Below are positions 15,386 to 62,416 of a stretch of DNA of 64,000 nt, in pieces. Source of the stretch: Myxococcaceae bacterium. GTDB taxonomy: Bacteria; Myxococcota; Myxococcia; Myxococcales; Myxococcaceae. The notes below the pieces were generated by a model. It saw only the letters and a program-made list of their open reading frames with translations. It searched no databases and had not been told where the DNA came from. The stretch spans positions 90,174 to 154,173 of the forward strand of contig JBGALX010000012.1 in the NCBI GenBank assembly GCA_044223505.1, read 5' to 3'. Position 1 is the stretch's first letter, and each line of letters opens with the position of its first letter. Made by a program: the position numbers and the translations under genes.

Positions 15386-15388
15386 GCG

Positions 15389-41024: not shown

Positions 41025-42845
<1,821 letters not shown>

Positions 42846-42965
42846 CGGGGTCCTCCCCTTACCCTCGGTGTGGTGCGCGCGTCGATGGGGGACCCCGGCC
42901 AGCGTCTCGAACACGCGCCGCCGGCCATCAGCCTGATCTACCGAACCTCAAGGTACTCAGGCCCG

Positions 42966-43489
42966 ATGGCGGGAAGCCAAGCCGCGTGCGCCGTGAGCGT
43001 GAAGCGGCTGTCTGCCTGCGCGATGCTCATCTGGCTCGCGGCCTGCTCGAGCGACAAGCGACCGCCCGACCACCCGGTCACTCCCGAGAATCACCCCTTC
43101 TTCCCCATCACGCCGGGGGCCGTTCACGAGCTCGGCAGGGTAACGGCCGGCGCGGCCATGAGCTGCGAGTCGTGCCACCCCGCGAGCAGCGAGTCGTTCA
43201 CCGACATCGTCTGCCTCGACTGCCACACGCACCGAAGGGCGTGACCGACCGCCTGCACCAGACGACCGCCGACTACGCCTACGAGAGCAAGGCCTGCTAC
43301 CGCTGCCACCCCGCCTCCGACCACCCGCCGTACGACCACGCGGGCGCTGGCCCTCGCGCAGCCGACCTCGGGCTGCAACGCACCACCTACGCGCAGCGCT
43401 GGCGCTTCAAGCACCCGAGCGAGAACACGCAGAACGTCACGTGCTGCATGTGCCACGACCAGAAGTCACCGGGCGTCTGCAAGAACTGA
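42966..43489 (+). CDS. Tetraheme c-type cytochrome lipoprotein, interrupted by an apparent -1 frameshift near 43235.
   Basis: MAGSQAACAVSVKRLSACAMLIWLAACSS lipobox. The first frame carries SCESCHP and CLDCHTH. The frame then shifts after CACACGCACC(C)GAAGG, a likely C homopolymer. The second frame carries ACYRCHP and CCMCHDQ, with high GC3 in each frame only on its own side of the shift. The track splits this gene across the tails of two junk ORFs. Confidence 0.55.
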
Positions 43490-43514: not shown

Positions 43515-45140
<1,626 letters not shown>

Positions 45141-45205
45141 GCGACCGGCTTCACTTCACCGCGCGCTCGACGACGTCGATGTACAGGCTGTCGGGGTAGC
45201 GGGCC

Positions 45206-45514
45206 TTGAACGCCGCCGCGCGCGGTCGCGTCGGCCTTGCGCCCGAGGCGAGCGAGCGCCTGAATCGCGGCGCGCCACAGGCGGCACGTGCACGGCGTCG
45301 GGCGGCGAGTGCCGGAGCGAGCTGCACGCTCACCGCCGACGTCGACTACCCGTGCCGGCCCGACCTGTACTGCACGGCCACGACGGCGAGCCCGTCGGGC
45401 ACCTGCGCGCCGAAGAAGCCGCGCGCTGCGAGCTGTGCCTCGCCCGTCGGTTGCCTGAGCGCGCAGTGCGTGATGGGCAGCTGCACGGCGCCGACGTACT
45501 GCTACGTGCCGTGA
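45206..45514 (+). pseudogene. Fragment of a small Dickkopf-N-like Cys-rich secreted protein (C-terminal part, upstream part frameshifted).
   Basis: ...SCTLTADVDYPCRPDLYCTATTASPSGTCAPKKPRAASCASPVGCLSAQCVMGSCTAPTYCYVP*. A second frame just upstream reads GGTCTASGGECRSE with high GC3. No intact N-terminus or signal peptide was found. Confidence 0.3.
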
Positions 45515-45515
45515 G

Positions 45516-46637: not shown

Positions 46638-46741
46638 CGCGGCGCACTCTACTCCGCGCCAACGCGTGCGCGACGCGCTTCCGCGAGGTTCGTTCGCGGC
46701 TGCACGGCACACGCTCCACTCCCGCGAGCCCGGGGAATAGA

Positions 46742-48415
46742 GTGTGTCGAGTGACCGCGGTGACAGAGACGGTCGAGCGCGCGATCGTCTTCGAAGAGGC
46801 CTCCGGCTACCGCCAGACCAGCGCGGCGCGGTGCCTCGACATGTGCGTGTCGGCGCTCGACGACGCCCTCGTGCAGATCGACCTCGGGCTGCGCAAGTCG
46901 GGGCCCGTGCTCTTCGTCATCTTCCGCCTGCGCGAAGACGCCTTCGCCGACGGCCACCACGCCGCCATCACCAACGCAGGCGAGCACGCCGGCGGCCGCG
47001 TCGTCTCGCTCACCGAGCTCGAGTATCAGGAGCGCGGCGCCTTCTTGAGCCGCTTCTCCGAGTGCGACCTGCAGCGGCTCGGGCTGCTCCCGGCGGCGGC
47101 CCTCGAGGCGCTCGACGAGCTCTCGGCCCAGGTGCCCGAGCGCCGCGCCGACGTGCGGCACCCCATCGACGCTCCGGCCGTCGTCACCGCCGGCGACCAG
47201 CGGGTGTCGGGCGAGCTCCAGAACCTCTCGGGGGGCGGAGCGCTGTTTCAGCCGCGCACGGCGCCTCCGGTGCTGCACCAGACGGTCGAGCTCGAGGCGA
47301 AGCTGCCGACGGGCGACGTGAAGGTGCCCGCCACGGTGGTGAGCGTCTCTGAGAAGGGCGTCTCGCTGCAGTTCGCCGCCGAGGCTCGGCCCCAGGTGAC
47401 CGAGAAGCTCAGCGCGCTGCCGGCGCCGAAGCTCGAGTCGAGCCTCACGGTCGACGCGCTCGTGGCCGCCCCACCGGCGCCCGCGGCGGCGGCCAAGAGC
47501 TCAGGCGAGGTCGAGCGCGTGGGCCCGTACGAGGTGCTCGGCCTGCTCGGCGCCGGAGCGACGGGCCTGGTGCACTTCGCGCGGGCCACGACGGGCAGGC
47601 TCTCGGGTCAGCTCGTCGCGCTCAAGCGGCTCGACGCGAGGCGCGCGAAAGACCCGGCGGTGGTGCGGGCCTTCGAGGCCGAGGCCGCGACGCTGGGCCG
47701 GCTCAAGCACCCGAACATCATTCGCGTGCTCGACTCGGGCGTCATCGACGGCCAGCACTGCCTCGTCACCGAGCTGGTCGAGGGCTACGACCTGTCGCAG
47801 CTCATCAAGCGCTACCGCGCGCGCGGCCAGCAGTTCCCCGTCGAGGTCGCGTGCTACCTCGTGAAGGGCCTGCTCGACGCGTTGTCGGCGGTGCACGGCG
47901 CGCACGACGCGTCGCCCGCGAAGCTGCCGCTCGTTCACGGCGACGTCTCGCCGCACAACGTGTTCGTCTCGAAGGCGGGCGCGGTGAAGCTCGGCGACTT
48001 CGGCCTCGCCGGGCACGGCAGCGAGAGCGCCTCGTGGAAGCAGCGCCGCCTCACGTACCTCGCGCCCGAGGCCCTCGACGGAGTCTTCTCGCCGTCGGTC
48101 GACCTCTGGGCCGCGGCCGTCACGCTGTACGAGCTGCTCACGCTCGAGCCGCCGTTCGCGGGAGCCTCGGTCGAGGCGCTGACCGCGGCGGTGCGCAGCA
48201 GCAAGGCGGCGCCTCTGCGCGAGCGGCGCGCCGAGTGCTCGGGCCCGCTCGAGGCGCTCTTGCGCTCGGCGCTCGAGAGAGACCCGGCGCTGCGGCCGGC
48301 GTCCGCGAGAGACTTCGTCGACAAGCTCTCGGTGCACTTTCACCCCGTTCGGGCGCCGCGGCAGCTGCCCGACGTGCTGCGCGCCGGAGCGCCGAAGCCG
48401 GCCGCGGCGAAGTGA
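46742..48415 (+). CDS. PilZ-domain-containing Ser/Thr protein kinase.
   Basis: An N-terminal roughly 130-aa unknown domain. Then a PilZ domain (RADVRHPIDAPAVV...GELQNLSGGGALFQ...VKVPATVVSV). Then a Pkinase domain (ALKRL, HGDVSPHNVFV, DFGLA, APE). A GGGGAA Shine-Dalgarno lies before the GTG start. Confidence 0.85.
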   Translation: MCRVTAVTETVERAIVFEEASGYRQTSAARCLDMCVSALDDALVQIDLGLRKSGPVLFVIFRLREDAFADGHHAAITNAGEHAGGRVVSLTELEYQERGAFLSRFSECDLQRLGLLPAAALEALDELSAQVPERRADVRHPIDAPAVVTAGDQRVSGELQNLSGGGALFQPRTAPPVLHQTVELEAKLPTGDVKVPATVVSVSEKGVSLQFAAEARPQVTEKLSALPAPKLESSLTVDALVAAPPAPAAAAKSSGEVERVGPYEVLGLLGAGATGLVHFARATTGRLSGQLVALKRLDARRAKDPAVVRAFEAEAATLGRLKHPNIIRVLDSGVIDGQHCLVTELVEGYDLSQLIKRYRARGQQFPVEVACYLVKGLLDALSAVHGAHDASPAKLPLVHGDVSPHNVFVSKAGAVKLGDFGLAGHGSESASWKQRRLTYLAPEALDGVFSPSVDLWAAAVTLYELLTLEPPFAGASVEALTAAVRSSKAAPLRERRAECSGPLEALLRSALERDPALRPASARDFVDKLSVHFHPVRAPRQLPDVLRAGAPKPAAAK

Positions 48416-48416
48416 G

Positions 48417-49358
48417 TCACGCCGCGAGCGCGCAGGCCATCATGCGCGCCATCGAGCCGAGCGTCTCGGCGTGAGCCTCGGTGAACGCGCGCGGCTCGAC
48501 GGCCTCGCTGTCGAGCACGCCGACGACGTCGCCGGCGACGAGCACCGGCACGGCGAGCGCCGAGCGGGCCTCGCGCGGCTCTGCGAGGCGGCAGCGGCGA
48601 TCGATGCGGGTGTCGTCGACGCGCTGCACGCGGCCCTCGTTCGCGGCGGTGCCTGCGACGCCCTGGCCGACGGGCAGCAGGCGCGGCTCGGTGAGCGTGC
48701 GCGGCTCGGGGCAGCTCGACCCGTAGCCGGCGACCTGGCGCAGCATCGAGCCGTCGCGGCGAAAGACCACGACCTCGGCGAACTGCAGCGCGATGCCGGC
48801 GCACTCGGCGATCTGCCAGGCGAGCTGGGCGAAGCGGTCGTCGCGGCCGCCGGCCTGCACCGAGAGCTGGTAGCCGGCGCCGCGGCGCGTGCGCAGGGCC
48901 TCGGGGTCGCCGAGCTTCTCTCGCAGGCGCAGCACCACCTTCGCGGCGCCGCCCTTCGACGACAACAGCTCGGTCGGAGCGACGACGCCGCCGTTCGCGC
49001 GCGCGAGCTTCTCGAGCACCTCGGTCTCGAGCGTCGTGAGGCACAGCTCGAGGCCGTCTCGCTCGACGGTGCCGCGGCCGAGGTCGACCCTGGCGCGGCC
49101 GATCTGCAGCACGGCGCCTCCGGCACGCGCGCCCCAGCGGTAGCCGCCGGCGTGAACGGTGTGCAGCCACTTCGGCCGCGACGGGTCAGGCTCGATCTTC
49201 TTGCGCAGCCGCGCGACGGCGGTGTCGATGGCGCGGAGGAACGGGTCATCGCTGCTCAGCCCCAGCCGCAGAGCGAGCGCGTCGCGGCTCATCGTCTGGC
49301 CTTCGTGTTCCTTCAGCACTGCGAGCAGCTGATGTTCCCGTGGAGTGAGCTCGTACAT
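48417..49358 (-). CDS. Transcriptional regulator: OmpR/PhoB-type winged-helix DNA-binding domain fused to a C-terminal GAF domain.
   Basis: LTPREHQLLAVLKEHEGQTMSRDALALRL...GYRW gives the trans_reg_C winged helix. The C-terminus looks GAF-like (GQGVAGTAANEGRVQRV...). The 5-prime end of the gene is unusually AT-rich. Confidence 0.7.
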   Translation of the reverse strand: MYELTPREHQLLAVLKEHEGQTMSRDALALRLGLSSDDPFLRAIDTAVARLRKKIEPDPSRPKWLHTVHAGGYRWGARAGGAVLQIGRARVDLGRGTVERDGLELCLTTLETEVLEKLARANGGVVAPTELLSSKGGAAKVVLRLREKLGDPEALRTRRGAGYQLSVQAGGRDDRFAQLAWQIAECAGIALQFAEVVVFRRDGSMLRQVAGYGSSCPEPRTLTEPRLLPVGQGVAGTAANEGRVQRVDDTRIDRRCRLAEPREARSALAVPVLVAGDVVGVLDSEAVEPRAFTEAHAETLGSMARMMACALAA

Positions 49359-49368
49359 ACCTTCATTA

Positions 49369-49384
49369 TTGTACGGACGTACAA
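49369..49384. promoter_or_regulatory. 16-bp palindrome TTGTACG-GA-CGTACAA immediately upstream of, or overlapping, the regulator start. Candidate operator.
   Basis: 7-bp perfect arms with a 2-bp spacer inside the only AT-rich island of this region (about 49330-49440). Confidence 0.4.
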
Positions 49385-49488
49385 AGTTGTGCTTACGCAG
49401 ATCGGCCCCAAGCACATGAGAATCGGGGTTTTGTGGCTCTACCGGTCACACCCGGCCGCAAAGGTGTGACTGCGCCGGTCACGTCGCC

Positions 49489-50304
49489 TCAGCGCGCTGT
49501 GGCCACGGACCCTTCGTACTCGTCGTCGTACTGGCGCGGGTACGTGCGGGGCCAGACGATGCGCTCGAACGGCTGCACGGCGAGCGTCAGCACGCCCTCG
49601 AAGCCGCGCGGGCCGTACAGCGCGGGCGTGAGGGCGGTGAGCTCGAAGTAGACGAGCTGCATCGTGAAGCGAGCGCCGAGGGCTCCGCGGAGCTGCTGGC
49701 CGTGGCCCGCGGTCGCGCGCAGCTCGGCGGTGAACGAGAGGAAGCGCCACGGCGCGACGCTGAGCCCGCTCGTCACGTCGACGGCCGTGCCGAAGAGCCA
49801 CGCCCCGTCTTCGCTTCGCTCGTAGAAGCCGGGCGTGACGGCGACGCGCGCGTGCACCGCGGCGTAGCGAAAGGCGAGCAGCCCGTCGACGCCGAGCGAG
49901 CCGCCGGCGCGGCGCGAGGTGCCGAACGCCGGCAGCAGCGCCTGGAGGTCGAAGCCCACCGCGAGGTGCTCGGGCTCGAGCGGCGCCTGCCACGCGACGC
50001 CGAAGCGCACGGGGCCCGGCTGCTCGAAGCTCACGAACGCCTCGGCGCGCTTGCGTGAGCGCCACGAGACGAACGCGCCGCCGCCGTAGGCGAGGTGCTG
50101 CTCGACGGCGCCGGTGACCGCGGCCTCGGTGCGCAGGCACGCGCGGTGGGCGCCGCTCGCGCGCAGGGGGCCGTAGAGCTCGGGCGGCGTCTCACCCTCG
50201 AAGCACGGAGCGCCGTCGTCGAGGAAGTCGTCTTCGAGCGCGAGCGCAGTGCTCGAGACGATGACTGCGAGCACGACAGCGCCGCGGGTCACGGGCTTCT
50301 TCAC
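49489..50304 (-). CDS. Exported hypothetical protein, possibly a beta-barrel outer-membrane protein.
   Basis: Signal peptide MKKPVTRGAVVLAVIVSSTALA. Alternating hydrophobic beta-strand-like pattern. Confidence 0.6.
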   Translation of the reverse strand: MKKPVTRGAVVLAVIVSSTALALEDDFLDDGAPCFEGETPPELYGPLRASGAHRACLRTEAAVTGAVEQHLAYGGGAFVSWRSRKRAEAFVSFEQPGPVRFGVAWQAPLEPEHLAVGFDLQALLPAFGTSRRAGGSLGVDGLLAFRYAAVHARVAVTPGFYERSEDGAWLFGTAVDVTSGLSVAPWRFLSFTAELRATAGHGQQLRGALGARFTMQLVYFELTALTPALYGPRGFEGVLTLAVQPFERIVWPRTYPRQYDDEYEGSVATAR

Positions 50305-51168: not shown

Positions 51169-52314
51169 ATGTCACCGGAGCTCCAGTCCGCCGCGACCTC
51201 GTTGCAGAAGGCGCTCGCCGCCGCGTCGCAATCGCTCGTCGAGCGCGAAGCCGTCGTTCAGCTCGTCGGCCTGTGCGCCGTGGCGTCCGAGCACCTGCTC
51301 GTCATCGGCCCGCCGGGCACCGCGAAGTCAGAGGCCGTGCGCCGCGTCGCGCGCGCCCTCGGAGGTCACTACTTCGAGTACCTGCTCGGCCGCTTCACCG
51401 AGCCCTCCGAGGTGTTCGGGCCCGTCGACCTGAAGCGGCTCAAAGAGGGCGTGGTCGAGACGCAGACCGACGGCATGCTGCCCGAGGCCGACATCGCCTT
51501 TCTCGACGAGGTGTTCCTCGGCTCGACGGCGATTCTGAACACGCTGCTCGGCATCTTGAACGAGCGCACCTTCCGCCGCGGGCACACGCGCATGACCTGC
51601 CCGCTGCGCGTCTGCGTCGGTGCGTCGAACGCGCTGCCGCAAGACGACATGCTCGGAGCGTTCGCCGACCGCTTCCTCGCGCGCATCTTCCTCACGTCGC
51701 TGCCCGACGCGCGGCTCGAAGAGCTGCTCGGCGGAGGCTGGGCGCTCGAGCAGAAGCCCCTCGAGCACCACGCGACGCTCGCGGACCTCTCGCTGCTCGC
51801 CGACGCGGCGCGAACGGTCGACGTGACGTCGGTGCGCGGGCCGCTCGCGCACTGCGTGCGGCTCTTGCGGCAGGCGGGCATTCACCTCACCGACCGGCGC
51901 GTGGTGCGGGTGCAGCGGCTGGTGGCGGCGGCGGCGATTCTCGCGGGCCGCATGCGGGCGACCGAGGCCGACCTGTGGCCGCTGCTCTACGCGGTGCCGA
52001 CGGCCGACGCTCAAGTGCTCGCGCGCGAGGTGCTGCACGACGTGCTGAAGGCGTCCGAGAACGCAGCGCTGCCGGCGGCGGCAGAAGAGGCGTCGCAGGG
52101 GCCGCTCGCGAGGGCGCACCGGCTCGCAGGCGCGGCGGGGCAACTGCTCGACGCGCCGCCCGAGAAGAGCGACGTGGCCGCGACGCAGGCGTGGCGCCTG
52201 AAGCTCGAGGGCGTGGCGCGCGAGATGGATGCGGGCTTCCCTCCAGAGCAGCTGCCCGAGGCGCTCAAAGCGCTGCGGCAGAGAATCGTCGACGCCACGA
52301 CGTCAGAGCCATGA
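51169..52314 (+). CDS. RavA-like MoxR-family AAA+ ATPase (AAA module only, no LARA domain).
   Basis: LLVIGPPGTAKSEAVRRVA...YFEYLLGRFTEPSEVFGPVDL...EADIAFLDEVFLGSTAILNTLLGILNERTFRRG closely parallels the RavA N-terminal module as recalled from memory. Confidence 0.8.
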   Translation: MSPELQSAATSLQKALAAASQSLVEREAVVQLVGLCAVASEHLLVIGPPGTAKSEAVRRVARALGGHYFEYLLGRFTEPSEVFGPVDLKRLKEGVVETQTDGMLPEADIAFLDEVFLGSTAILNTLLGILNERTFRRGHTRMTCPLRVCVGASNALPQDDMLGAFADRFLARIFLTSLPDARLEELLGGGWALEQKPLEHHATLADLSLLADAARTVDVTSVRGPLAHCVRLLRQAGIHLTDRRVVRVQRLVAAAAILAGRMRATEADLWPLLYAVPTADAQVLAREVLHDVLKASENAALPAAAEEASQGPLARAHRLAGAAGQLLDAPPEKSDVAATQAWRLKLEGVAREMDAGFPPEQLPEALKALRQRIVDATTSEP

Positions 52315-52338
52315 GCGTGAGCGCGTGAAGGGCGGCGC

Positions 52339-52752
52339 GTGAGAGTCACCTTCACCGCGAGAGCCGAGCCGCTGCTGGCGCAAGCGGTCGCGGCGATGCG
52401 AGAGCAGAAGAGGCTCCTCGCAGAGGGGCTGCTGAAGCTGCCAGACGAGCTCCTCGAGCGCATGAGCGGGGTCACCACGCCGGAGGCCGCCGTCGTCATG
52501 GGCCCGACGAGCGTGCTGCCGTGGTTCGACGGAGCGCTCTACCTCGGCGCCCGCGGCGGCCTATTGATGCCGTCGTGGGCCGAGCCCGACGTCGACCCGC
52601 AGCTGCTCGAGCGCGCGCTGAGGCGAGGTCTGCCGCAGGCGCCCGTCGGGCCGCTCGCGCTGCTGTTCACGCGGCTCGACGAAGCGCCGCTGGTGGTGCC
52701 GCTGTCGGGGGCGAGGCCGCTGTCGCGCGAGCACGTCGGCAAGCTGCTCTGA
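52339..52752 (+). CDS. Hypothetical protein (137 aa) immediately downstream of the MoxR-family gene.
   Basis: High GC3. A GAAGGG Shine-Dalgarno lies before the GTG. No vWA domain. Confidence 0.55.
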   Translation: MRVTFTARAEPLLAQAVAAMREQKRLLAEGLLKLPDELLERMSGVTTPEAAVVMGPTSVLPWFDGALYLGARGGLLMPSWAEPDVDPQLLERALRRGLPQAPVGPLALLFTRLDEAPLVVPLSGARPLSREHVGKLL

Positions 52753-52867
52753 CGACGACTCCGTTGCCTTCGGCGTCGAGCACCTCGAACGGCACCTGGC
52801 CGACGTGCGGTGCTCGACGAGCGAGCTGCGCGGGCTTGCGCCCAGGCTGGGCGGTTCGCGCCCTCGG

Positions 52868-55800
52868 CTACTTCCACTTGCCGTTGCCGAAGGTGCCGGC
52901 GACGGGCGGGGTGAGCTTCTCTCGGCCGCCGGTGCCGGCGTGGCACGAGGTGCAGTCTTCACCGGCGGTCGACCCCTCGTGGTTGCCGATGCGCTCCTGG
53001 TTGGCGCTCGGGTGGGTGATGGTCAGGCTGGCGTTGGTGGTCGTCGCGGTCGCGGCGCTCGAGATGGTGAAGCTCGTGGCGTTGGTGATGGTCCTGATGG
53101 TGATGGTGCCGGCGGGAATGGGGGTGCCGGTGATTCGCATACCGACCGCCAGATCCGCCGTCGAGGCGGTCGTCACCGTGGTGCTGCCCGACGTGGTCGA
53201 CGCGACGAGGGCGAGCGGCCCGCTGCTGACCAGGTACGGGCTGCCGGTGTTGTGGCACATCACGCAGTACGTCGGGTTGGTGCTCGCGTTGTAGAGCGTG
53301 CTGCCGAGGTTCGGCGAAGCGGCCACCCCGTTGATGGTCACGTTCGTCGTGAGGCCCGCATGGTTGTAGTTGGAGATCTTCGCGTAGTTCACGCCGGGGT
53401 GGCACTGCGCGCAGCTCGTGTAGGTATTGGCTGGCGGGTGGGCGAGGGTGATGGTGAGCGAGGTGATGTTCGAGCCCGACGTCCACGGGCCGAGCGTGAT
53501 GGTCGCGGGTGCGCCGGTGGCGCCCTTCCAGTTCGGCGCCGACGAGGTGCCGGTGCCCGGCCAGCTGTGACAGCTCGCGCAGTCTTGGCTGCCGGGAGTG
53601 CTCGTGAAGCCCGAGTGATTGTATTTGAACTGTGGCCCCGGCTTCACGTTCAGGTGGCAGTTGCTGCACCGCCCGTTCACGCCATCGCTCACGAGCGGGT
53701 TGCTGCCGGTGAACCGGGTGTGGAACCTCGCCTGCGCCCACTCGACGCCCATGACGCCGGCGACCGTCGAGGGCCCGCTCTGGGTATGGCAGAAGTTGCA
53801 GTCGTGGCCCGTCACGTTCACGTCGGCGTGCGTGATTTGGTCGTGTGTGCCCGGCGGCACGCCGCTGTCGGGCGTCGACGGCACCGTCGAGAGCGTCGCG
53901 CTGTCGATGAGCCCGGCGGGCAGGTTGTTCCTCGTGCCCACGACGTTGCCGCCGCCGTTCGTCAGGCCGTGGCACTCGCGGCAGGTCGTGGCCGTCGTCA
54001 CCGAGGCGTGGAAGGGGGCGCTCTTGCTCCATGCGCTGCCCGTGGCCTTGGCGTCGGCCCGGTGGCAGACCACACAGTCTTTGCCGATGACGAGGGGCGA
54101 GCCGTGGTTCATCCACTGGGCGCCGTTCGTGGCGGTGCCGCCCTGCGCGAGCGAGTAGGTCACGCTGCTCTGCGTCGAGGCGTTCGCGGCGGGCAGCGTC
54201 ACCTGGTGGCACGACACGCAGGTGGCAGGCTGGCTCGCACCGAAGCTCGAGTGCAGGGCGCCGCCGCTCCATCGCGTCGAGACCGGAGTCTGCGTCGCCA
54301 TGCCCAGCGCGCCCGAGTGGCACGTCTGGCACGCCTGAGTCGTCATCTCGGGCGCTCGGTGCTGCATGCGGTAGCGCATCATCAGCGTCAGGTCTGCCTG
54401 AGCGGCGCTCGCCATCAGCGGGTAGTGGCAGCTCACGCACTCGCTCGGCTGCTCGGCGCCGATTCGGGTGTGGAAGGTGCCGTCGGCCCAGCTGGTGCCG
54501 GGGGTGCCCCGGTGACAGGTCGAGCAGTCGAGCCCCGTCACGCCCGAGTCGGAAGCGAAGCGGGCGTGGTGGTCCATCGGGAGCAGCGTCGAGCTCATGC
54601 GCTCGACGATGCCCGGAGCCAGCATCTGGTTGTGACAGTCGAGGCACTGGCCGTTGGGCTGCGGCAGCCCCGCATCGGTGACCGCGAGGTGGAAGACGCC
54701 GTCGGCGTAGCCGCCCGGCTTGTGGCACAGCGGGCACCTCGACGTGTCGGGGTTCGAGCCGCCGTCAGACGAGCCCGGCCGCATCGAGAGGGGTATCGCC
54801 GTCGAAGCGTGCAGCATGCCCTGGTACAGCGGCACGTTCGTCGTCGACATCGACGTCACGAGGTTCAGCGGCCCAGAGCGGTTGAGCGTGATGTTGCTCA
54901 CGGTGATGAACCGACTCGTCGAGCTGATGAAGCTCGCCGGGTACGGCTCGCCGCCGGCCCAGTCGCTCAAGGCCTGGTAGCGGTTCGCGGTGACCGTCGC
55001 CTGGTGGCAGCCGAAGCAGTCGCCCGTGCCGTCGGTCGCGTGGTTGAAGGCCGGTGGGGCTCCGACGGGCATCGTCGGCCGCTGGCTCACGTGACACGAG
55101 ATGCAGCGCACGGCCGAGGGCGTGTTGGGGCCGTGCTGGAAGTCGCCGCCCACCCAGTTCGGAGTCCCGCCCCACATGCCGGTGCCCGGGCCCTTGTGGC
55201 AGAGCGCGCAGTCTTGACCGTCTCCGTGCGTGTTGCCGGAGCTGTTCGTGCCGTAGTCGAACGGCCGGCTGGTGTAGGTGGTGCTCAGCCACTGGGTGGT
55301 GTCGGTCGGGCGCCGCCCGTCGTGACACGGCAAGCAGGTGGCGGGCGTGGCCGAGCCCGCCAGGTGGAACCTGCCGCCCGCCCAGCCGGTGCCGTCGAGC
55401 GCGCTCGCGTTGAAGTGGCACGTCTTGCAGTCGGCGAGGGCGCTGGGCTCCTGGTGGTCGAACTTGAGGCCGTTCGGCTGGCTGACGATGGCGGTGGGGC
55501 GCGAGTTCGCGTGGCAGTCGAGACACGAGTCGACCCTCGCCGTCAGCGAGGGGTGGAACTTCGCCGGCGCCGCGCCGGTCTTGCCGTCGACCCACGTGGC
55601 CGCGCGGGCCGCGCTCGGCGCCTGGTGGCACAGCGAGCAGTCTTGCGGCACCAGCCCGGTCATCGTCGGAGCCCCGCTCGCCCACGCGACCGCTTCGTGC
55701 CTCATCTCGCCCGACGCCGGGTCGCGGCCGGGCGGGCTGACCAGCGGGCCGACGAACCCGCGGGGCTGCGTCGCGACGTGGCAGTCGGTGCAGCCGCTGA

Positions 55801-56518
55801 CGGTCACGCCCAGGGTCACGAGCGAGCTGTGGAGCTCGCCCGGGTAGTAGCCGCCGAGGGCGGCGTCGACGTGGCAGGCCTCGCAGGTCGCCAGGGTCGC
55901 CGCTGGAACCTGGGTCGAGCTGTGGTTCATCACCTGCTTGAGGCTCTGCTGATCAGGCGTCAGGCTGATGATCGACTGCCCCGACCAGGTCGGCACCAGC
56001 CCGGTGACCTGCACGTCACGGCTCGGGTCGCTCGAGTCGCTCGGCGCGCCGGTCGCGTCTTTCCAGGTCTGCGTGTTGTGGCAACCGCCGCACCCCGACG
56101 TGCCCATCGGCCGGTGCGTGAAGCCCGGGATCGGCAGCGCGGCGAACGGGGCGTCGACGTCGTGGCAGGTCGCGCACTCGCTCGACACGACGCCGGTGTG
56201 TGAGAACGGCATCTGTTCGCCGGTGGGGTGGCAGGTGAAGCACGTTCGCTCACCGAAGGTGTAGTCGCCGACGCCCTTGTGCAGCAGGCTCGAGATGCCT
56301 TGATCATGAATGTGGCAGCTGACGCAGGTGAAGTCTTTGAAGCTCTCGGCCGCCGGAGGGTGACAGGCGTCGCACCCGCTCAGCTTCGCGAGGTCGTGGT
56401 TGGTGCCCGCAACGATGGGGAAGTAGACGTGCCCCTCGGGCGTCAGGCCCTGGCCGGTGCCTTTTCCTCCGGGCGTACATGCGGCTGTGGCGACGACGGC
56501 GAGCGTCAGCAGGCGCAT
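52868..56518 (-). CDS. Giant multiheme c-type cytochrome lipoprotein (about 28 CxxCH motifs).
   Basis: MRLLTLAVVATAAC lipobox. 28 CxxCH heme-binding motifs counted across 1216 aa (CDACH, CVSCH, CFTCH, CATCH, CGGCH ... CVMCH, CTSCH). Thr/Ser/Gly-rich linkers sit between them. Confidence 0.9.
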   Translation of the reverse strand: MRLLTLAVVATAACTPGGKGTGQGLTPEGHVYFPIVAGTNHDLAKLSGCDACHPPAAESFKDFTCVSCHIHDQGISSLLHKGVGDYTFGERTCFTCHPTGEQMPFSHTGVVSSECATCHDVDAPFAALPIPGFTHRPMGTSGCGGCHNTQTWKDATGAPSDSSDPSRDVQVTGLVPTWSGQSIISLTPDQQSLKQVMNHSSTQVPAATLATCEACHVDAALGGYYPGELHSSLVTLGVTVSGCTDCHVATQPRGFVGPLVSPPGRDPASGEMRHEAVAWASGAPTMTGLVPQDCSLCHQAPSAARAATWVDGKTGAAPAKFHPSLTARVDSCLDCHANSRPTAIVSQPNGLKFDHQEPSALADCKTCHFNASALDGTGWAGGRFHLAGSATPATCLPCHDGRRPTDTTQWLSTTYTSRPFDYGTNSSGNTHGDGQDCALCHKGPGTGMWGGTPNWVGGDFQHGPNTPSAVRCISCHVSQRPTMPVGAPPAFNHATDGTGDCFGCHQATVTANRYQALSDWAGGEPYPASFISSTSRFITVSNITLNRSGPLNLVTSMSTTNVPLYQGMLHASTAIPLSMRPGSSDGGSNPDTSRCPLCHKPGGYADGVFHLAVTDAGLPQPNGQCLDCHNQMLAPGIVERMSSTLLPMDHHARFASDSGVTGLDCSTCHRGTPGTSWADGTFHTRIGAEQPSECVSCHYPLMASAAQADLTLMMRYRMQHRAPEMTTQACQTCHSGALGMATQTPVSTRWSGGALHSSFGASQPATCVSCHQVTLPAANASTQSSVTYSLAQGGTATNGAQWMNHGSPLVIGKDCVVCHRADAKATGSAWSKSAPFHASVTTATTCRECHGLTNGGGNVVGTRNNLPAGLIDSATLSTVPSTPDSGVPPGTHDQITHADVNVTGHDCNFCHTQSGPSTVAGVMGVEWAQARFHTRFTGSNPLVSDGVNGRCSNCHLNVKPGPQFKYNHSGFTSTPGSQDCASCHSWPGTGTSSAPNWKGATGAPATITLGPWTSGSNITSLTITLAHPPANTYTSCAQCHPGVNYAKISNYNHAGLTTNVTINGVAASPNLGSTLYNASTNPTYCVMCHNTGSPYLVSSGPLALVASTTSGSTTVTTASTADLAVGMRITGTPIPAGTITIRTITNATSFTISSAATATTTNASLTITHPSANQERIGNHEGSTAGEDCTSCHAGTGGREKLTPPVAGTFGNGKWK

Positions 56519-56713
56519 GGCTCAAATGTACCTTGACGCGGATCAAGGCAGGCGCGTGCGCGCGGCCTGGGCCTCTCGTTCGATGGAGACCTCGGCGCAG
56601 AAGGTCGCTGATGGCGCCGAAGGTCCCACAGCAGCCGGGGGTTCCCTCGAACCGCCGACCTTGTCGCCGTGCTTGTCTTTGCGCACAGGTCGAGCCACAC
56701 GTACCGCTCGACC

Positions 56714-57598
56714 ATGATGGCCTCGTACGAGATCGAGCTGCCCGAGCCCTCGCGGTCGCTGTGCGACTGCTGCGGTGGCCTGAGCGTCCGCATGACGCGG
56801 TTCGTGCTCCGCAACGACGCCCCGTACGCCGTCTACTGCGCCGCCTACTCGAACCATCGCTCGCACCGCGAGCTCGCGATGCTCGTGTCGCTCGGCGAGT
56901 GGGGCGAAGGCAGCACGCCTTCCCAGCGCTCGGCCTTCTACTGCCGCATTCGCCCGAGCGGTGACTCGTACGAGCTCATGCTCGGCGACGCCGCGAGGTC
57001 GAGCTGGGCCGACGACGAGCGCGTCGGCGCCAAGCTCTCGCGCGAGCAGGCCCTCGCGCACCCGATGAAGTCGATCGCGTTCGGGCTGATCGACGACGTG
57101 TTCCACAAAGACCCCTCGCTGCGCGGCTTCCTCGAGCGCGTGCACTGCGGCGACGCGGCGGCTCCGCTCGAGCGCAACTTCGCCATGCCCGACGACGTCT
57201 TCGAGCTCGGCGATGCGAGAGCGACACGCGCCGAGCTCGGCCGCAACTTCGTCGTGCTCGACGGCGAACGGCACTTCGTGCGCTGCCTGCTCCCGCTCGA
57301 CGTCGAAGAGTACGGCAGCTGGAACGTCGGCCTCTGGGTCGAGGTCTCGAAGGCCGACTACGACCACGCTTCGAAGGTGTGGGAAGACGCGGCGCTGTAC
57401 CCGAAGCTCGAGCTCCGAGGCACGCTCGCGAACGACGTCGCCACCGACATCGGGCTGCCCATCGCCGCGCGCAGCGAGCTTCACGTTCGCGTGGTCGACG
57501 CCGAAGAGCTGCCGCAGATCTCGCCGCCCGCGAGCCTCGCCCGGCAGTGGCCGAAAGACGACTTCGAGCGCTTCGCCGTCACGCGCGGCTTTCTGTGA
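56714..57598 (+). CDS. DUF2199-like protein with an N-terminal Cys cluster.
   Basis: MMASYEIELPEPSRSLCDCCGG...YAVYCAAYSNH... Family name recalled from memory. Confidence 0.6.
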   Translation: MMASYEIELPEPSRSLCDCCGGLSVRMTRFVLRNDAPYAVYCAAYSNHRSHRELAMLVSLGEWGEGSTPSQRSAFYCRIRPSGDSYELMLGDAARSSWADDERVGAKLSREQALAHPMKSIAFGLIDDVFHKDPSLRGFLERVHCGDAAAPLERNFAMPDDVFELGDARATRAELGRNFVVLDGERHFVRCLLPLDVEEYGSWNVGLWVEVSKADYDHASKVWEDAALYPKLELRGTLANDVATDIGLPIAARSELHVRVVDAEELPQISPPASLARQWPKDDFERFAVTRGFL

Positions 57599-58809
57599 TG
57601 CTGACGCTCGTCGTGCTGCTGCAGCTGCAGCAACCCTGGCCGCCCCCGCCGTGGGCACCGGGCGGGGCCTCGCGCCCCGAAGACCTCGCAATCACGCTCG
57701 CGACGATGGGGCCCGGCGACGGCGTCGCCTACATGGGAGGTCACTCGGCGCTCGGCGTCATCGACACGAAGCGCATGGAGGGCCGCCTCTACAACTTCGG
57801 CGTCGTCGAGTTCTCGCCCGACCTGATGTGGAACTTCGTGCTCGGCCGCCTCGACTTCTACGCCGACGAAGCGGCCATCGAGTCGACGTACGACGTGTAC
57901 CGCGCGCTCGACCGCGACGTCCGCGTGCAGGTGCTGAACTTGAGCCCCGAGCAGTCGCTGAAGCTGGCGAACGCGCTCGCGGTGGGCGTGCTGCCCGAGA
58001 ACCGCACGTTCCGCTACCACCACTTCGACGACAACTGCTCGACGCGACCTCGCGACCTCATCGACCGGGCGTTCGGCGGCGCCCTGTCGCGCGACAACCA
58101 GGGCCCGGCGCGCATGAGCCTGCGCGAGCACTCGCGGCGCTACACGAGGGTGTTCCCCTTCTTGTCGGTCTGGCTCGACTACATGCAGAACGACAGCGTC
58201 GACCGGCCCATCAAGCGCTACGACGAGGCCTTCCTGCCCGACGAGCTCGAGCGGCAGCTCGACAACCTCGTCGTCGACGGCCAGAGCGCCGTGAAGAAGA
58301 AGACGACGCTCTACCAGTCGAAGACGAACCCGCCGCCGCCGAACGACTCGCCCCGCTGGAGCGCCTGGCTCGCCTGCTTCTCGCTGCTCGCCGGCGCCGC
58401 GGTGCTGGTGCTGAGCCGCAGCCGGAAGGCCGCCGCGCGCAAGGCGCTCGGGGTCTTCTTCGCGCTCGTCGGTCTCGTCTGGGGCGGCAGCGGCCTCTTG
58501 CTGTTCATGCTCGGGTTCTTCACCGAGCACCTCATCACGCACGGCAACGAGAACCTGCTGTTCGCGAGCCCGCTGACGCTGCTGCTCTTGCCGCTGGGAG
58601 TGCTGCTGTACCGGAATCACCCGCGCGCGCTGAAGGGGCTCGAGTGGGTGACGCTCGCGCTCGCCGGCCTCGCGCTCATCGGCGTCGCCGCGAAGGTGCT
58701 GCCGAGGTTCGACCAGCAGAACGGCAACGTCATCGCCCTGGTGCTGCCGCTGAGCCTCGCGTGCGCCGTCGCCTTCCGGCTTCGCGGCCGCGCTGAAGCG
58801 AAGAGCTGA
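57598..58809 (+). CDS. DUF4105-family membrane protein (periplasmic N-domain plus about 4 TM helices).
   Basis: Signal/TM segment MLTLVVLLQLQQ. Middle region ...RVQVLNLSPEQSLKLANALAVGVLPENRTFRYHHFDDNCSTRPRDLID. A C-terminal TM bundle. The start overlaps the upstream stop (TGATG); the exact start is accurate to about 3 nt. Confidence 0.65.
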   Translation: MLTLVVLLQLQQPWPPPPWAPGGASRPEDLAITLATMGPGDGVAYMGGHSALGVIDTKRMEGRLYNFGVVEFSPDLMWNFVLGRLDFYADEAAIESTYDVYRALDRDVRVQVLNLSPEQSLKLANALAVGVLPENRTFRYHHFDDNCSTRPRDLIDRAFGGALSRDNQGPARMSLREHSRRYTRVFPFLSVWLDYMQNDSVDRPIKRYDEAFLPDELERQLDNLVVDGQSAVKKKTTLYQSKTNPPPPNDSPRWSAWLACFSLLAGAAVLVLSRSRKAAARKALGVFFALVGLVWGGSGLLLFMLGFFTEHLITHGNENLLFASPLTLLLLPLGVLLYRNHPRALKGLEWVTLALAGLALIGVAAKVLPRFDQQNGNVIALVLPLSLACAVAFRLRGRAEAKS

Positions 58810-58836
58810 GGTCGCCGCCGTCGAAGGGGGCTTCCG

Positions 58837-60351
58837 TCAGAGCTGACTGGGGTCCGTCGGCGCGCCGAGGCCCTTCGCGTTGAGAATCGCCTGCTCCTGG
58901 GGCAGCCGCTCGAGCCAGAACGTGCGCAAGAAGTCGAACGCCTTCGCGAGGGTCTTGCTCGGGGCGTCGAAGTTCGCTCCGCCGTCCTGGCCCGAGGCCT
59001 TCAGCATCGCGTAGAGCAGCTTCGGCACGTAGTCGTTCTTCTTCACCTCGTACGACGAGGGCACCATCGGGAAGCCGCGGTCGTGGTGGAAGTTGAACTC
59101 GAAGAACTCGATGGCGCTCTTGAGCTGCGGGTCCTTCACCTCGGCGAGCTTGTCGGCCAGCTCGGCGCGCCACACGTCGATCTGCTTCTGCAGCTGGCGG
59201 ATCTGCGGCTCGGTCATGCGGTGCTCGGCCTCGTACGCCAGCCGCTTCCCGAAGATCGCCGAGTTGTGCCGCGCGTCGTGCACGTAGAAGTCGGAGCCCG
59301 GGCGCACGAAGCCGTCTGCCGCGACCGGCTCCTGCGTGACGCCCATCAGGAACAGGTCGTACTGCGCGAGCCGCATGAAGACGTCGGTGCCGAGGGGCTC
59401 GCTGGTCGGCAGGCTGATCAGCTTCAGCTCCGACGTGTTCGCGAACGCGTCGACGAACGGCTTCTGCACCTTCCGGAAGCCCGAGCCGACGCCGGGGTTC
59501 GCCTCGAAGATCGTCATCTGCCGGCTCTCGAAGAGCTTCACCTCTTCGGCCATCGTCACGTGCTTGTGGCCCTGCAGGAACCGATCGACGACCAGGAACG
59601 CGCGGTCTTTGAGCGAGAGGTCGCCCTCGTCGAAGTGCCCCATCGCGCGCGCCGAGAAGTACGAGAGCTCTTGCAGCCGCTCGTAGTCGATCTTCCCGCC
59701 CTTCAGGTGCCCGGCGACCTCGGCCTTCAGCGTCTGCAGGTGGTGGATGCCGAGCTCGTGCTCGGCGATCGCAGCAGTGTCGCCCTTCGGCAGGCGCTCG
59801 AGCTGTGAGCGCACCTTCTCGAGCTCCGCGCCGAGGTCCTTCTCGAAGCCCTTCAGCACCGGCAGGCCGTAGTCGCTGAAGTCGAAGCGGTACGGGTGCG
59901 CCGGGTCGACGCTGCGCTGCTCGGCGAACCGCGTCTTCACGCTCGCGATGAACGCGTCGGGGTCCTTCAGCACGACGTCGAGCGTCGGGTACTTGCCCAC
60001 CAGCTTCGCGTTCGCCTCGGCGTAGACCTTCTGCTGCTTCGCCGTCGCGCCGACGCCGAAGAGCGCGTCGGCCGAGCTCGCCTGGTGTTTCCCGAACCAG
60101 GCATGAGCCTGCGACGTCGTCGCCTTCGTCAGCTCGCCGACGAGCGCAGCGGCGCCGAGGCCGTCGTGCGCGCCCGCCTTCGCCTTGAACGCATCGGACA
60201 GCACCGCCTGCTCCGACGGCTGCAGCGGCCGGCCGAGGTGCCGCTCGGCCGCTGTCACGAGCTTCTGCAGCGTGGGCGACTCGACGGCGAGCCGCTGCTG
60301 CACGAAGGCGGCGAGGCCGGCGGTGGGCGCAGCGCTCTTGCTCAGGGCCAT
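58837..60351 (-). CDS. Hypothetical protein (504 aa), no signal peptide, no recognisable domain.
   Basis: High GC3 throughout. Lys-rich. Sits downstream of the muramidase gene on the same strand. Confidence 0.6.
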   Translation of the reverse strand: MALSKSAAPTAGLAAFVQQRLAVESPTLQKLVTAAERHLGRPLQPSEQAVLSDAFKAKAGAHDGLGAAALVGELTKATTSQAHAWFGKHQASSADALFGVGATAKQQKVYAEANAKLVGKYPTLDVVLKDPDAFIASVKTRFAEQRSVDPAHPYRFDFSDYGLPVLKGFEKDLGAELEKVRSQLERLPKGDTAAIAEHELGIHHLQTLKAEVAGHLKGGKIDYERLQELSYFSARAMGHFDEGDLSLKDRAFLVVDRFLQGHKHVTMAEEVKLFESRQMTIFEANPGVGSGFRKVQKPFVDAFANTSELKLISLPTSEPLGTDVFMRLAQYDLFLMGVTQEPVAADGFVRPGSDFYVHDARHNSAIFGKRLAYEAEHRMTEPQIRQLQKQIDVWRAELADKLAEVKDPQLKSAIEFFEFNFHHDRGFPMVPSSYEVKKNDYVPKLLYAMLKASGQDGGANFDAPSKTLAKAFDFLRTFWLERLPQEQAILNAKGLGAPTDPSQL

Positions 60352-60543
60352 GGGGTGACTTCACTCGCCCACCCGGTGAGCCACAATGCCGCGCGGCGCC
60401 ACTCCGAGTGGTACGGCGCGCCAGCCGCGGCCGCATGAACGTGCGAACCATCGAGCGGGCGTCGCTTCGCGAGCCACGACGTTCCGAGGTCAGGGCCTTG
60501 AAGCTCGGCCTCGTCGCCGCCGCGCTCGTGCGCGGGTTCGACC

Positions 60544-61851
60544 TCAGAACCAGCCCGCCCACTTCCGCAGCGCGAGCTCCGAGCCGCTGAAGACGTCGTT
60601 GTCGACGCCGCCCTTGATGCCCGTCTGCACGAACGGGAACTTGTAGTCGCTGCTCTGCGGGCTCCAGTGCGCGTCCCAGATGGGCGAGTGCGGCACGAGG
60701 TGGTGCGCCTGAGACACCCTGCTCGCCGAGCAGTAGATGAGCGGCCACTGCCCGGTCACCTGGTGCACGCGCACCGCCGCGTCGCGCAGCGTCTGCGGCG
60801 ACGAGAGCGCGCTGGCCTCCCAGTCGAGCGCGAGCCGCGTGCCCGGCTTCAGCGGCCCGTGCACGCCCATCGTCTTCAGGAAGTGGTCGGCCTGCGCACG
60901 GCCGTTGCCCGGCTGCAGGAAGTGGTACGCGATGCGCAGGTCGAACTTGCCGGGCTCGAGCTTCTTGCCGAGCGTGCTCCAGCGCCCGCGGAAGGTGCTG
61001 TCGACGCCGCGCGAACCGTCGGTCGCTTTGATCGCCATGAACCGCGTGCCAGGTCGCGCGAGCAGCTCGCGGAACTTCGCGTCGCTCTGCCAGTGCGAGA
61101 CGTCGTAGCCCTTCTGAAACCCGCCCGGCTTCACCGAGGGGAAGCGGCCGGCCGTCGCCGCCTTCTTCTGCAGCGCCGCCCGCGTCGCGCGGTTCGCCTC
61201 GCCCGTCACGGTGAGCCCCTGCCTCCGCTGAAACGCCCGCACCGCGCGCGCCGTGTCTGACGTGAAGCGGCCGTCGGCCTTGCCGGGGTCGCGGCCGAGC
61301 AGCTTCAGGTTCAGCTCGGCCTGCTTGACGCGGAACTGCGAGGTCTGGGCGAGCTGCGCGCCGATGGCGTCGCCCTTGTCGGGCACGAGCTTGTCCTGCT
61401 TGCGGAAGGCGTGGATGGCCGCGAGCGTCTTCGCGTCGAACGTGCCGTCGACCTTGCCGGTGTCGAAGCCGAGTGCGTCGAGCCGCGCTTCGACGGCGCG
61501 AATGTCGGTGCCGCGCTGGCCGAGCCGCGCGGGCGTCTCGAAGCCGCTCTTCACGAACAGCTGCTGCGCCTTGAGCGCGTTGACCTCGGCGGCGTCGAGC
61601 ACGCCGTCGGCGGTGAGGTCCTTCTGCGTCTGCAGCGCAGTGACCGCGGTCTGCGTCGCGGCGTCGTACGTGCCGTTCACCGGGCCGGTGTATGCGCCGA
61701 CTCCGCGCAAGAGCCGCTGCAGCGCTTCGACCGCGGGGCCGGTCTCGCCGGGCTGAAGCTGCTCGGCTCCGGCGACCGACGCGGTGATCCGCGAGAGATC
61801 CGCTCGCACGGCCTTCACTTCGCTGGGGAGAACCCGGTGGCGGAGAATCAT
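60544..61851 (-). CDS. GH25-family muramidase (lysozyme) fused to 4 peptidoglycan-binding (PG_binding_1-like) repeats. No signal peptide.
   Basis: Repeats GPAVEALQRLLRGVGAYTGPVNGTYDAATQTAV, GTDIRAVEARLDALGFDTGKVDGTFDAKTLAAI and two more. A GH25 core follows: GYDVSHWQSD...FMAIKATDG. Confidence 0.75.
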   Translation of the reverse strand: MILRHRVLPSEVKAVRADLSRITASVAGAEQLQPGETGPAVEALQRLLRGVGAYTGPVNGTYDAATQTAVTALQTQKDLTADGVLDAAEVNALKAQQLFVKSGFETPARLGQRGTDIRAVEARLDALGFDTGKVDGTFDAKTLAAIHAFRKQDKLVPDKGDAIGAQLAQTSQFRVKQAELNLKLLGRDPGKADGRFTSDTARAVRAFQRRQGLTVTGEANRATRAALQKKAATAGRFPSVKPGGFQKGYDVSHWQSDAKFRELLARPGTRFMAIKATDGSRGVDSTFRGRWSTLGKKLEPGKFDLRIAYHFLQPGNGRAQADHFLKTMGVHGPLKPGTRLALDWEASALSSPQTLRDAAVRVHQVTGQWPLIYCSASRVSQAHHLVPHSPIWDAHWSPQSSDYKFPFVQTGIKGGVDNDVFSGSELALRKWAGWF

Positions 61852-62062
61852 GACGACGTTTTCGAGCGCAGGTCGCGCTCCGTCGCCTGAAACGCCGGCG
61901 TGACGCAGACAAGCGCCACAGATGATTCGCGCTTCGACGCGTTTCTCTTCGCGTGAGAGCGCACTGTGAAGAAGCGTGCTCGAGAATTTTCGCAGAATCG
62001 CTGGCGCGCTTTACATCGTGCGCGTCATCGGGCGCCGCTCTTCGCAGCCTTCTTCGGCCGGG

Positions 62063-62305
62063 TCACTTGACGCTCTTCTCCCAGTCGTCGGTGCTGCTGA
62101 TGTTGCCGTCCTTCCAGATGGACTCGATCTTCTGGTGCGTGGTGCTCGGCTTCGTCTTGCTGTCCGCCGTGTCCTTCACCTCGAACGTGTCGTTCGCCTT
62201 CGGCGCCGCCGGCATCTTCTTCTCGACCTTGCACTGCTCGACCTTCGCGGTCAGCGGCCTCGCCTTCGGTGCGACGGAGGGACGGAACGTGACCTTCGAG
62301 CCCAT
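62063..62305 (-). CDS. Small Lys-rich hypothetical protein (80 aa).
   Basis: MGSKVTFRPSVAPKARPLTAKVEQCKVEKKMPAAPKANDTFEVKDTADSKTKPSTTHQKIESIWKDGNISSTDDWEKSVK. Near-perfect GC3 codon bias. Present only as the tail of a 572-aa spurious track ORF. Confidence 0.5.
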   Translation of the reverse strand: MGSKVTFRPSVAPKARPLTAKVEQCKVEKKMPAAPKANDTFEVKDTADSKTKPSTTHQKIESIWKDGNISSTDDWEKSVK

Positions 62306-62416
62306 GGAGGGCCCGAGTACAGCAAGGTGAGGGCCAGCGATGCACGCAGCAAACACGCCCGGTTCCCTCGAACGCCGGCATTGCGCACGTGACGACGCCG
62401 CTGGCACGCTTCGACC

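Follow-up and report, generated by a model that had tools for sequence, protein, structure and literature searches.

The locus described here raises the question of what a lipoprotein with 28 heme-binding motifs is for, and whether it belongs to a route by which electrons cross the outer membrane. The gene lies on the minus strand at 52868..56518 of a 64,000-nt stretch of contig JBGALX010000012.1 from a Myxococcaceae bacterium (assembly GCA_044223505.1); we call the whole 64 kb the window and the product of this gene the cytochrome. An initial annotation, made from the letters alone, had described a single 1216-aa lipoprotein with about 28 CxxCH motifs and His-rich spacers, had likened it to extracellular nanowire cytochromes, and had suggested metal or electrode respiration. 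Here, we show that the gene is genuine and that its product belongs to an uncharacterised family of 28- to 29-heme lipoproteins, nearly all from Myxococcota, which in relatives has an unusual inner-membrane partner. With moderate confidence, we consider the cytochrome to be the lipid-anchored outer end of a porin-cytochrome-type conduit, a multiheme wire whose partner genes are encoded elsewhere.

The first matter to settle is whether such a density of heme motifs could be a wrong-frame artefact of GC-rich DNA, a test that had been set beforehand. The open reading frame (ORF) starts at an ATG six bases past an in-frame stop and encodes 1216 aa. The GC content at its three codon positions (0.57/0.60/0.93) is what a genuine coding frame of high GC content shows, and its third-position value (GC3, 0.93) and codon usage resemble those of other genes of the ~70% GC window. 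CxxCH occurs exactly 28 times, whereas all six frames of the window together hold 33 such strings, the same 28 included. Of the 57 Cys in the protein, 56 lie within CxxCH and the remaining one, Cys14, is the lipobox Cys; 33 of the 61 His are outside the motifs, and a motif scan of the whole protein detected no CxxxCH, CxxxxCH or CxxCK variant. Residue shuffles of the protein (n = 20,000) gave a mean of 0.13 CxxCH and a maximum of 4, against the 28 observed. Because all 28 motif positions are kept in homologs (alignments A1 and A2; columns invariant or at least 90% conserved), a wrong-frame artefact is excluded; GC3, the shuffles and the conserved columns in more than 200 homologs all speak against it, no point speaks in its favor, and we regard its probability as effectively nil. 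The 28-heme lipoprotein gene is thus confirmed, along with the lipobox and the His-rich spacers.

The mature cytochrome has a computed mass of ~124 kDa, or ~142 kDa with hemes, and a computed pI of ~6.5. Its 28 motifs span residues 49-1193 (52940..56374, minus strand, as for all parts of the protein given here), placed by motif positions and alignments. Motif contexts and alignment of the units show that residues 299-984 (53567..55624), which carry hemes 9-25, are built of at least eight tandem di-heme units with the consensus W..G.FH-x6-9-CxxCH-x2-4-[RK]P...[FM][DN]H-x5-9-CxxCH, heme 15 falling between units. A His is located 6-32 residues upstream of almost every CxxCH. In an alignment of 29 family sequences, 29 non-motif His are conserved in at least 70% of members and 25 in at least 90%, and the cytochrome keeps all 29 for its 28 hemes. 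These residues would supply one partner per heme, as bis-His low-spin hemes need, and no conserved Met ligand pattern is evident in the protein.

Motif spacing also reveals two non-heme inserts, the first at residues 148-211 (55886-56077) and similar to the second at residues 506-594 (54737..55003). The second appears as a long beta-hairpin, one of two long hairpins in all, in a low-confidence AlphaFold2 model. A third non-heme stretch, rich in Thr and Ser, separates hemes 27 and 28 (residues 1090-1188; 52955..53251) and was delimited by alignment of the C-terminus. This stretch and the C-terminus are common only to a subfamily of ~1300 aa with 26 hemes (P0007, P0010 and others) and not to the 29-heme majority, and the cytochrome therefore lacks the C-terminal 29th heme of the majority.

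Profile searches place the protein among multiheme c-type cytochromes. In Pfam, Cytochrome_C7 (PF14522) matches in nine stretches (1.2e-29; 102 bits against a cut-off of 24.8) and Mtrc-MtrF_II-IV_dom (PF22113) in 11 partial stretches (6.4e-29; 101 bits against 30), and Cytochrom_CIII (PF02085; 57.7 bits, cut-off 22.9) and Cytochrom_c3_2 (PF14537; 54.6 bits, cut-off 25) are also above threshold. With its conserved CxxCH, its export signal and these scores, the cytochrome is by sequence a multiheme c-type protein of the class III or c7-like kind. No NCBIfam family reached its curated cut-off; sub-threshold scores were 40.7 bits for the DmsE/MtrA decaheme family (cut-off 192.2), 20.3 for HmcA (400) and 10.7 for NrfH (134.2). 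A sequence search of the Protein Data Bank (PDB) with the family profile returned four weak matches, at E 4e-4 or worse, the best of them to 3ouq, a fragment of GSU1996 (E 4e-4). A weak resemblance, below threshold, to NrfH and to a chain of a cytochrome nitrite reductase could be taken to indicate not a wire but a catalytic enzyme, for example a reductase or oxidase acting on nitrite, hydroxylamine, sulfite or peroxide. We find this very improbable, since CxxCK and other variant motifs are missing, there are enough conserved His to pair with all of the hemes, neither Pfam nor NCBIfam detects a non-heme catalytic domain, and the repetitive di-heme build is typical of electron conduits.

The N-terminus bears on where the protein would reside. 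The signal peptide and lipobox (MRLLTLAVVATAA/C; 56477..56518) are supported by sequence and by the conserved Cys, and they would release a mature protein beginning C-T-P-G-G-K-G, with Thr at position +2 and Gly at +7. The lipobox Cys stands at the aligned position in 28 of the 29 family members, and members have G, S, T, V, Q or A at +2, none of them Lys. In Myxococcus xanthus, Lys at +2 marks inner-membrane lipoproteins and Ala at +7 those of the extracellular matrix (PMC3222651). Because the cytochrome has neither residue at these positions, the M. xanthus rule, extended to another lineage, predicts an outer-membrane location.

The cytochrome belongs to a family for which searches brought up over 200 homologs. 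The top 120 are mostly 1200-1300 aa long with 34-58% identity, and over 100 proteins are 45-56% identical over 80-100% of its length; the source names of these homologs are just "hypothetical protein" or generic cytochrome labels. A single-sequence HMMER search over 1.84 billion cluster representatives gave 503 relatives at E<=1e-3, 131 of them at E<=1e-30. Members of the 29-sequence set have 25-32 CxxCH, typically 29, and the window protein shares the family's length (~1200-1300 aa), lipobox, motif number (26-32) and His partners, minus the C-terminal 29th heme. A scan of family loci, taking one genome per species, yielded 78 loci, all from metagenome-assembled genomes (MAGs) and none from a cultured strain, with a best identity to the window protein of ~50%. 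Nearly all are labelled Myxococcota or "delta/proteobacteria", with Myxococcaceae, Archangiaceae, Anaeromyxobacteraceae, Polyangia and Sandaracinaceae among the taxa; three are labelled otherwise (Ca. Dormiibacterota, Oligoflexus and Pseudomonadota). A published survey reports that MAGs of Myxococcota and Anaeromyxobacteraceae encode many predicted extracellular multiheme cytochromes (PMC11495043), and our literature search found no paper describing the 28- to 29-heme family or the gene module described below.

Some relatives are far larger. Locus L058 has a stop-to-stop frame of 3147 codons with 78 CxxCH (6035-15475) and L042 one of 2483 codons with 57 CxxCH (9851-17299), and library proteins of 2100-3350 aa (P0317-P0323) match the cytochrome in two to eight stretches. 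The relatives from the HMMER search include proteins of 2000-3300 aa whose several matching stretches cover most of the query. The N-terminal domain (residues ~6-86) is matched in 13-25 separate stretches in P0329, P0362 and P0385; these repeat matches mark it as a module in its own right, in line with the small window paralog discussed below.

The neighbors of the relatives suggest a function. When the ORFs of all family loci were clustered, four recurrent neighbor types emerged, which we designate F, T, D and B. Of 68 family loci, 29 have at least one of these module genes within 10 kb, as do 18 of the 28 loci that have at least 8 kb on both flanks. T (~650 aa, 20 CxxCH) and D (~300 aa, 10 CxxCH) are c7/c3-type cytochromes with a Sec signal that are not lipoproteins. 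Neither Pfam nor NCBIfam recognises B (~550-600 aa); its copies in L029, L037 and L044, the loci that were read, carry a signal peptide and a terminal F/W. A structural model of B (pLDDT 84.3) shows a small N-terminal beta domain and 22 antiparallel strands, and its top 50 Foldseek matches in the PDB, at TM-scores of just 0.24-0.49, are without exception barrels of the outer membrane (MOMP, FimD/PapC ushers, OprD-type porins and TonB receptors); from the model, B is a predicted 22-strand outer-membrane barrel.

The fourth neighbor is the unusual one. F (~750 aa) begins with a transmembrane helix followed by an Arg-rich stretch, and by the positive-inside rule the domains after this helix would be cytoplasmic. 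They comprise ferredoxin-like Cys motifs (Fer4; two Cx5Cx3CP) and a thioredoxin-reductase-like Pyr_redox_3 FAD/NAD(P)H domain (3.3e-42). A C-terminal multi-helix membrane domain has a weak Ferric_reduct match, and F contains two invariant His-x13-His pairs (His565/His579 and His730/His744), each in a hydrophobic predicted transmembrane segment. The membrane domain resembles the di-heme-b domain of NOX/FRE proteins. Examples of F are L029 3170-5443, L037 7579-10146 and L083 2-1795. We found no description of F, which could pass electrons outward from NAD(P)H to cytochromes of the periplasm and bypass quinones.

In L029 and L083 the genes run in the order F-T-D-B-cytochrome on one strand. L083, which holds the closest relative of the window cytochrome (56% identity) in a full operon, has stop/start overlaps at F/T, T/D and D/B, and its cytochrome gene follows 63 nt after B. 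Summed over the module, there are 59 c-hemes (20 + 10 + 29). Mtr and porin-cytochrome (Pcc) systems combine a porin, a multiheme cytochrome of the periplasm and a lipoprotein cytochrome of the outer membrane (PMC4245776), and operons in relatives that encode a barrel with 10- and 20-heme cytochromes therefore support a role in a porin-cytochrome conduit. The JAYVRT MAG carries one module-linked and one stand-alone copy of the cytochrome (L010 and L050).

Comparison with known systems helps to define this role. Like MtrC, OmcA and MtrF of the Shewanella MtrCAB systems, the cytochrome is a lipoprotein multiheme c-type protein, with 11 partial stretches matching PF22113, and the relatives' module likewise encodes a ~10-heme periplasmic cytochrome and a large outer-membrane barrel. 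The MtrC family, however, has 10-11 hemes in a build of two pentaheme and two beta-barrel domains, whereas the cytochrome has 28 hemes largely in tandem di-heme units, and we rejected membership of that family on heme number and domain build. Barrel B, with ~22 predicted strands, has no MtrB_PioB Pfam match, and MtrB is outside its top 50 folds; the module also adds a 20-heme protein and a different inner-membrane component. No mtrA-like or mtrB-like genes are present in the window, and the relatives' partners are analogous and non-homologous to those of MtrCAB. The Pcc clusters of Geobacter (OmaB-OmbB-OmcB) follow the same design of porin, periplasmic cytochrome and outer lipoprotein cytochrome (PMC4245776); compared by description, OmcB has 12 hemes against 28-29 in the cytochrome family, and the module as a whole has 59 c-hemes. 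The two-gene pcc clusters described in Anaeromyxobacter, of the same phylum as the cytochrome family, consist of a porin and a 12-heme protein only, with no outer-membrane cytochrome (PMC4245776). The relatives L029, L083 and others form Pcc-type clusters, and the window copy does not.

The comparison to nanowires held up less well. The GSU1996-type c7 dodecahemes likewise are repetitive c7/c3-like heme chains, and both the nine Cytochrome_C7 stretches and the 3ouq match point in their direction, but their unit is tri-heme rather than di-heme, and GSU1996 is soluble and periplasmic, whereas the cytochrome is a lipoprotein. The corresponding "nanowire" profile, TIGR04257 nanowire_3heme, gave no match at E up to 1. 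OmcS, OmcE and OmcZ share with the cytochrome a proposed ability to move electrons beyond the cell via stacked hemes. They are polymerising subunits of 4-8 hemes and not lipoproteins, in contrast to a long heme chain within one 1216-aa polypeptide, and a relation to them was rejected, as searching the PDB sequences with the family profile brought up none of them at E up to 0.01. The cytochrome thus has neither the architecture of the filament cytochromes nor that of the GSU1996 type, and the outer-membrane lipoprotein cytochromes of porin-cytochrome conduits (MtrC/OmcA and OmcB) offer the better functional analogy.

In the mechanism that we propose, the cytochrome would be exported by Sec, lipid-anchored and sorted to the outer membrane, where 28 low-spin bis-His hemes, largely in tandem di-heme units, would form one long electron-conducting chain. 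Electrons would pass from periplasmic multiheme cytochromes through the outer-membrane barrel to the cytochrome and on to acceptors outside the cell, for example Fe(III)/Mn(IV) minerals or humics, although the reverse direction would also be possible. The stand-alone copy would serve as an alternative terminal module, used with partners encoded elsewhere, much as Shewanella keeps several MtrC/OmcA paralogs. Heme ligation, an outer-membrane or surface location, the direction of electron flow and the plugging into partners elsewhere in the genome are the features of this scheme that we infer.

Such a chain might instead work inside the cell envelope, as a wire or capacitor that faces the periplasm, anchored in the inner leaflet of the outer membrane and bridging the periplasm or buffering electrons without extracellular contact. 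Default Lol sorting delivers lipoproteins to this leaflet and would favor this arrangement, as would the fact that the window copy stands alone with no adjacent barrel. MtrA arranges 10 hemes over 104 Å (cited in PMC4245776). With the ~1 nm per heme of MtrA and GSU1996, 28 hemes in an extended chain could therefore reach ~25-30 nm, which would match the width of the periplasm. Very large multiheme cytochromes have been suggested to act as capacitors (PMC11495043). Against this, the relatives' operons already hold two soluble periplasmic cytochromes (30 hemes) and a barrel, which leaves the outer position to the lipoprotein, on the pattern of MtrCAB and Pcc systems. We therefore consider a purely periplasmic role fairly unlikely.

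Several observations weigh against assigning the window copy to the outer end of a conduit. Sequence cannot tell a surface-exposed from a periplasm-facing position, and the AlphaFold2 model of residues 17-1216, made from a 52-sequence alignment, is too low in confidence to be usable (pLDDT 48, pTM 0.32). The searched literature contains no experimental study of any family member. No F, T, D or B homolog is encoded in the window, where tblastn gave weak cytochrome-cytochrome matches alone, and no cytochrome c maturation genes are among the window genes scanned. A neighbor-joining tree, which is star-like and calls for caution, groups the window copy with 11 copies that likewise have no module in their flanks. 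The cytochrome gene sits in an insertion absent from sister contigs, and the frame of a small 4-heme paralog nearby is broken by a 1-nt deletion after CLDCHTH (~43231-43233). The maturation genes and porin-cytochrome partners that the initial annotation had suggested looking for elsewhere in the genome are thus absent from the scanned genes and from the 64 kb, respectively, and it is the relatives that supply a module. Extracellular electron transfer accordingly stands as the best reading by way of the relatives' operons, whereas metal or electrode respiration by the source organism is not established, because the window has no partners and the gene lies in a lineage-specific insertion.

That insertion is a block of 9.66 kb (52733..62398), delimited by alignment to the sister contigs L080, L081 and L082, by tblastn and by Pfam. 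It is lineage-specific because its flanks lie close together in these contigs: the bases that align with window 52732 and 62399 are separated by 9 nt in L082 and by 1.36 kb in L080/L081. The block encodes the cytochrome, a DUF2199 protein, an Lnb-like protein, a 504-aa protein that matches no Pfam family and a GH25/PG-binding lysozyme, and none of the five has a tblastn match in the L080, L081 or L082 loci. It splits a MoxR-vWA-beta-propeller ternary-system operon (MoxR-bpX5 / 614-aa gene / bpX6) that is contiguous in L082. Around it, the genes for an MVP-shoulder protein, response regulators, a PilZ protein, a KaiC-like ATPase, an SDR, MoxR, bpX5, the 614-aa protein and bpX6 are collinear between the window and both L080/L081 and L082, and the MopE-type and DUF2330 genes are common to the window and L080/L081 only. 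The block ends show no mobile-element signature, tRNA or Rfam family, and the short imperfect repeats found there (mostly 70-90% identical) do not pair the ends. L080 carries a different insert, of 1.36 kb, at the same site, and the site between bpX5 and the 614-aa gene may be an insertion hot spot.

The cytochrome gene looks monocistronic, because it is convergent with bpX5 and divergent from the DUF2199 gene. No riboswitch or other RNA was detected upstream of it at gathering thresholds (compare the GEMM riboswitches of Geobacter cytochrome genes), and the one terminator-like site found lies inside the gene on the opposite strand. These surroundings prompt the question of whether the gene is an orphaned remnant, which arrived in the insertion or was stranded by it and is now non-functional or silent. 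The absence of the insertion from L080, L081 and L082 would fit such an origin, as would the lack of module genes in the window, the small paralog that is frameshifted here and absent from a sister contig, and a promoter scan that returned 0 promoter-like sites, none sigma-70-like, with an SD-like (Shine-Dalgarno) AAGG ~12 nt from the start. Yet the 3.65-kb ORF is intact, with all 28 motifs, the lipobox and the 29 conserved His retained, and its GC3 of 0.93 equals that of the host. Moreover, the presence of both linked and stand-alone copies in JAYVRT suggests that stand-alone paralogs are kept. A remnant therefore seems quite unlikely, and we retain the view that the gene encodes the outer wire of a conduit with its partners elsewhere.

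The small paralog is a 4-heme lipoprotein gene (42966..43489, plus strand) related to residues 8-109 of the cytochrome at 35% identity (E 1e-26), and its broken frame reflects a pseudogene or else a fault in the assembly. What had been reported as two tetraheme-class signals at these positions are the four CxxCH of this one frameshifted gene, split over two frames. A DUF2330 gene (43515-45140, plus strand; Pfam 1.5e-51) begins 25 nt downstream. In the sister contig L080, no 4-heme paralog is present at the syntenic site between the MopE-like and DUF2330 genes, and the blocks flanking the site are 207 nt apart there and 884 nt apart in the window. The window contains no other heme-rich ORF. A lone CMLCH occurs at 8140 (plus strand), just past a molybdopterin oxidoreductase gene (5770-8037, minus strand; Fe4S4, Molybdopterin and Molydop_binding domains), which is the sole other redox enzyme gene seen in the window. 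Positions 44900-49520 form a second stretch absent from L080, which encodes a metallophosphoesterase, a PilZ + Ser/Thr kinase and a winged-helix + GAF regulator, and which is flanked by the conserved DUF2330 gene and a conserved 271-aa gene. Elsewhere, the window encodes a large cadherin/Big_9 repeat adhesin that runs off its edge (1-2330, minus strand), a bacterial major-vault-protein-like protein with an MVP shoulder domain (30777-33062, plus strand), and a Cys-rich protein with MopE-type repeats and a lamin-tail domain (41025-42914, minus strand).

The immediate neighbors of the cytochrome gene also deserve comment. On the left flank of the block lie the bpMoxR and bpX5 genes (51169..52752, plus strand), supported by synteny and by Pfam (bpMoxR 1.7e-85; bpX5 2.7e-18). 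On the other side, across a 150-nt intergenic gap, is the DUF2199 gene (56669..57598, plus strand; PF09965, 2.1e-12), which is translationally coupled through a TGATG overlap to the Lnb-like gene (57598..58809, plus strand; Lnb_N 8.7e-20, 5TMH_Lnb 1e-8). The latter family was formerly DUF4105 and is now Lnb_N plus 5TMH_Lnb, and Pfam thus bears out the divergent DUF2199/DUF4105 pair described from the letters. Lnb is a lipoprotein N-acyltransferase of Bacteroides (PMC11573676). The Lnb_N domain followed by five transmembrane helices is the architecture of the Bacteroides enzyme, and in the block this gene pair adjoins the gene of a giant lipoprotein, a pairing that does not recur in other family loci and may be coincidence. 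A functional link of the cytochrome to the DUF2199, Lnb-like or MoxR genes was rejected, as none of them recurs beside the family in the 78 other loci. The MoxR ATPase is 93%, 90% and 86% identical to metagenome and Myxococcaceae-MAG proteins, the 90% match being to a Myxococcaceae MAG, and just ~70% identical to those of Corallococcus, Myxococcus and Pyxidicoccus. These identities uphold the myxobacterial character originally assigned to the neighborhood and therefore place the source in an uncultured Myxococcaceae-like lineage.

The result for the window gene is a modest one, a solid and intact member of a known functional kind whose partners are unseen, and it shows that the gene for the outer cytochrome can travel apart from the rest of its module. 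Should the conduit reading hold, an undescribed porin-cytochrome system with a 28- to 29-heme surface lipoprotein is present in uncultured Myxococcota of soils and wetlands, its carriers include relatives of aerobic, predatory Myxococcaceae, and a wider set of organisms would be expected to reduce or oxidise soil minerals and humics. The 28- to 29-heme family, whose homologs have so far been generically named, would then also provide a marker for metagenomic surveys. We speculate further, and think it unlikely rather than likely, that the cytochrome family and F may define a quinone-independent form of extracellular electron transfer specific to uncultured Myxococcota, in which F would oxidise cytoplasmic NAD(P)H and pass electrons through 59 c-hemes and a 22-strand barrel to the outside, and in which the stand-alone copy, acquired with the Lnb-like homolog, would be an exchangeable surface module. 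If that were true, such a module would let a nominally aerobic predatory lineage dump electrons on minerals and humics or draw them from its prey.

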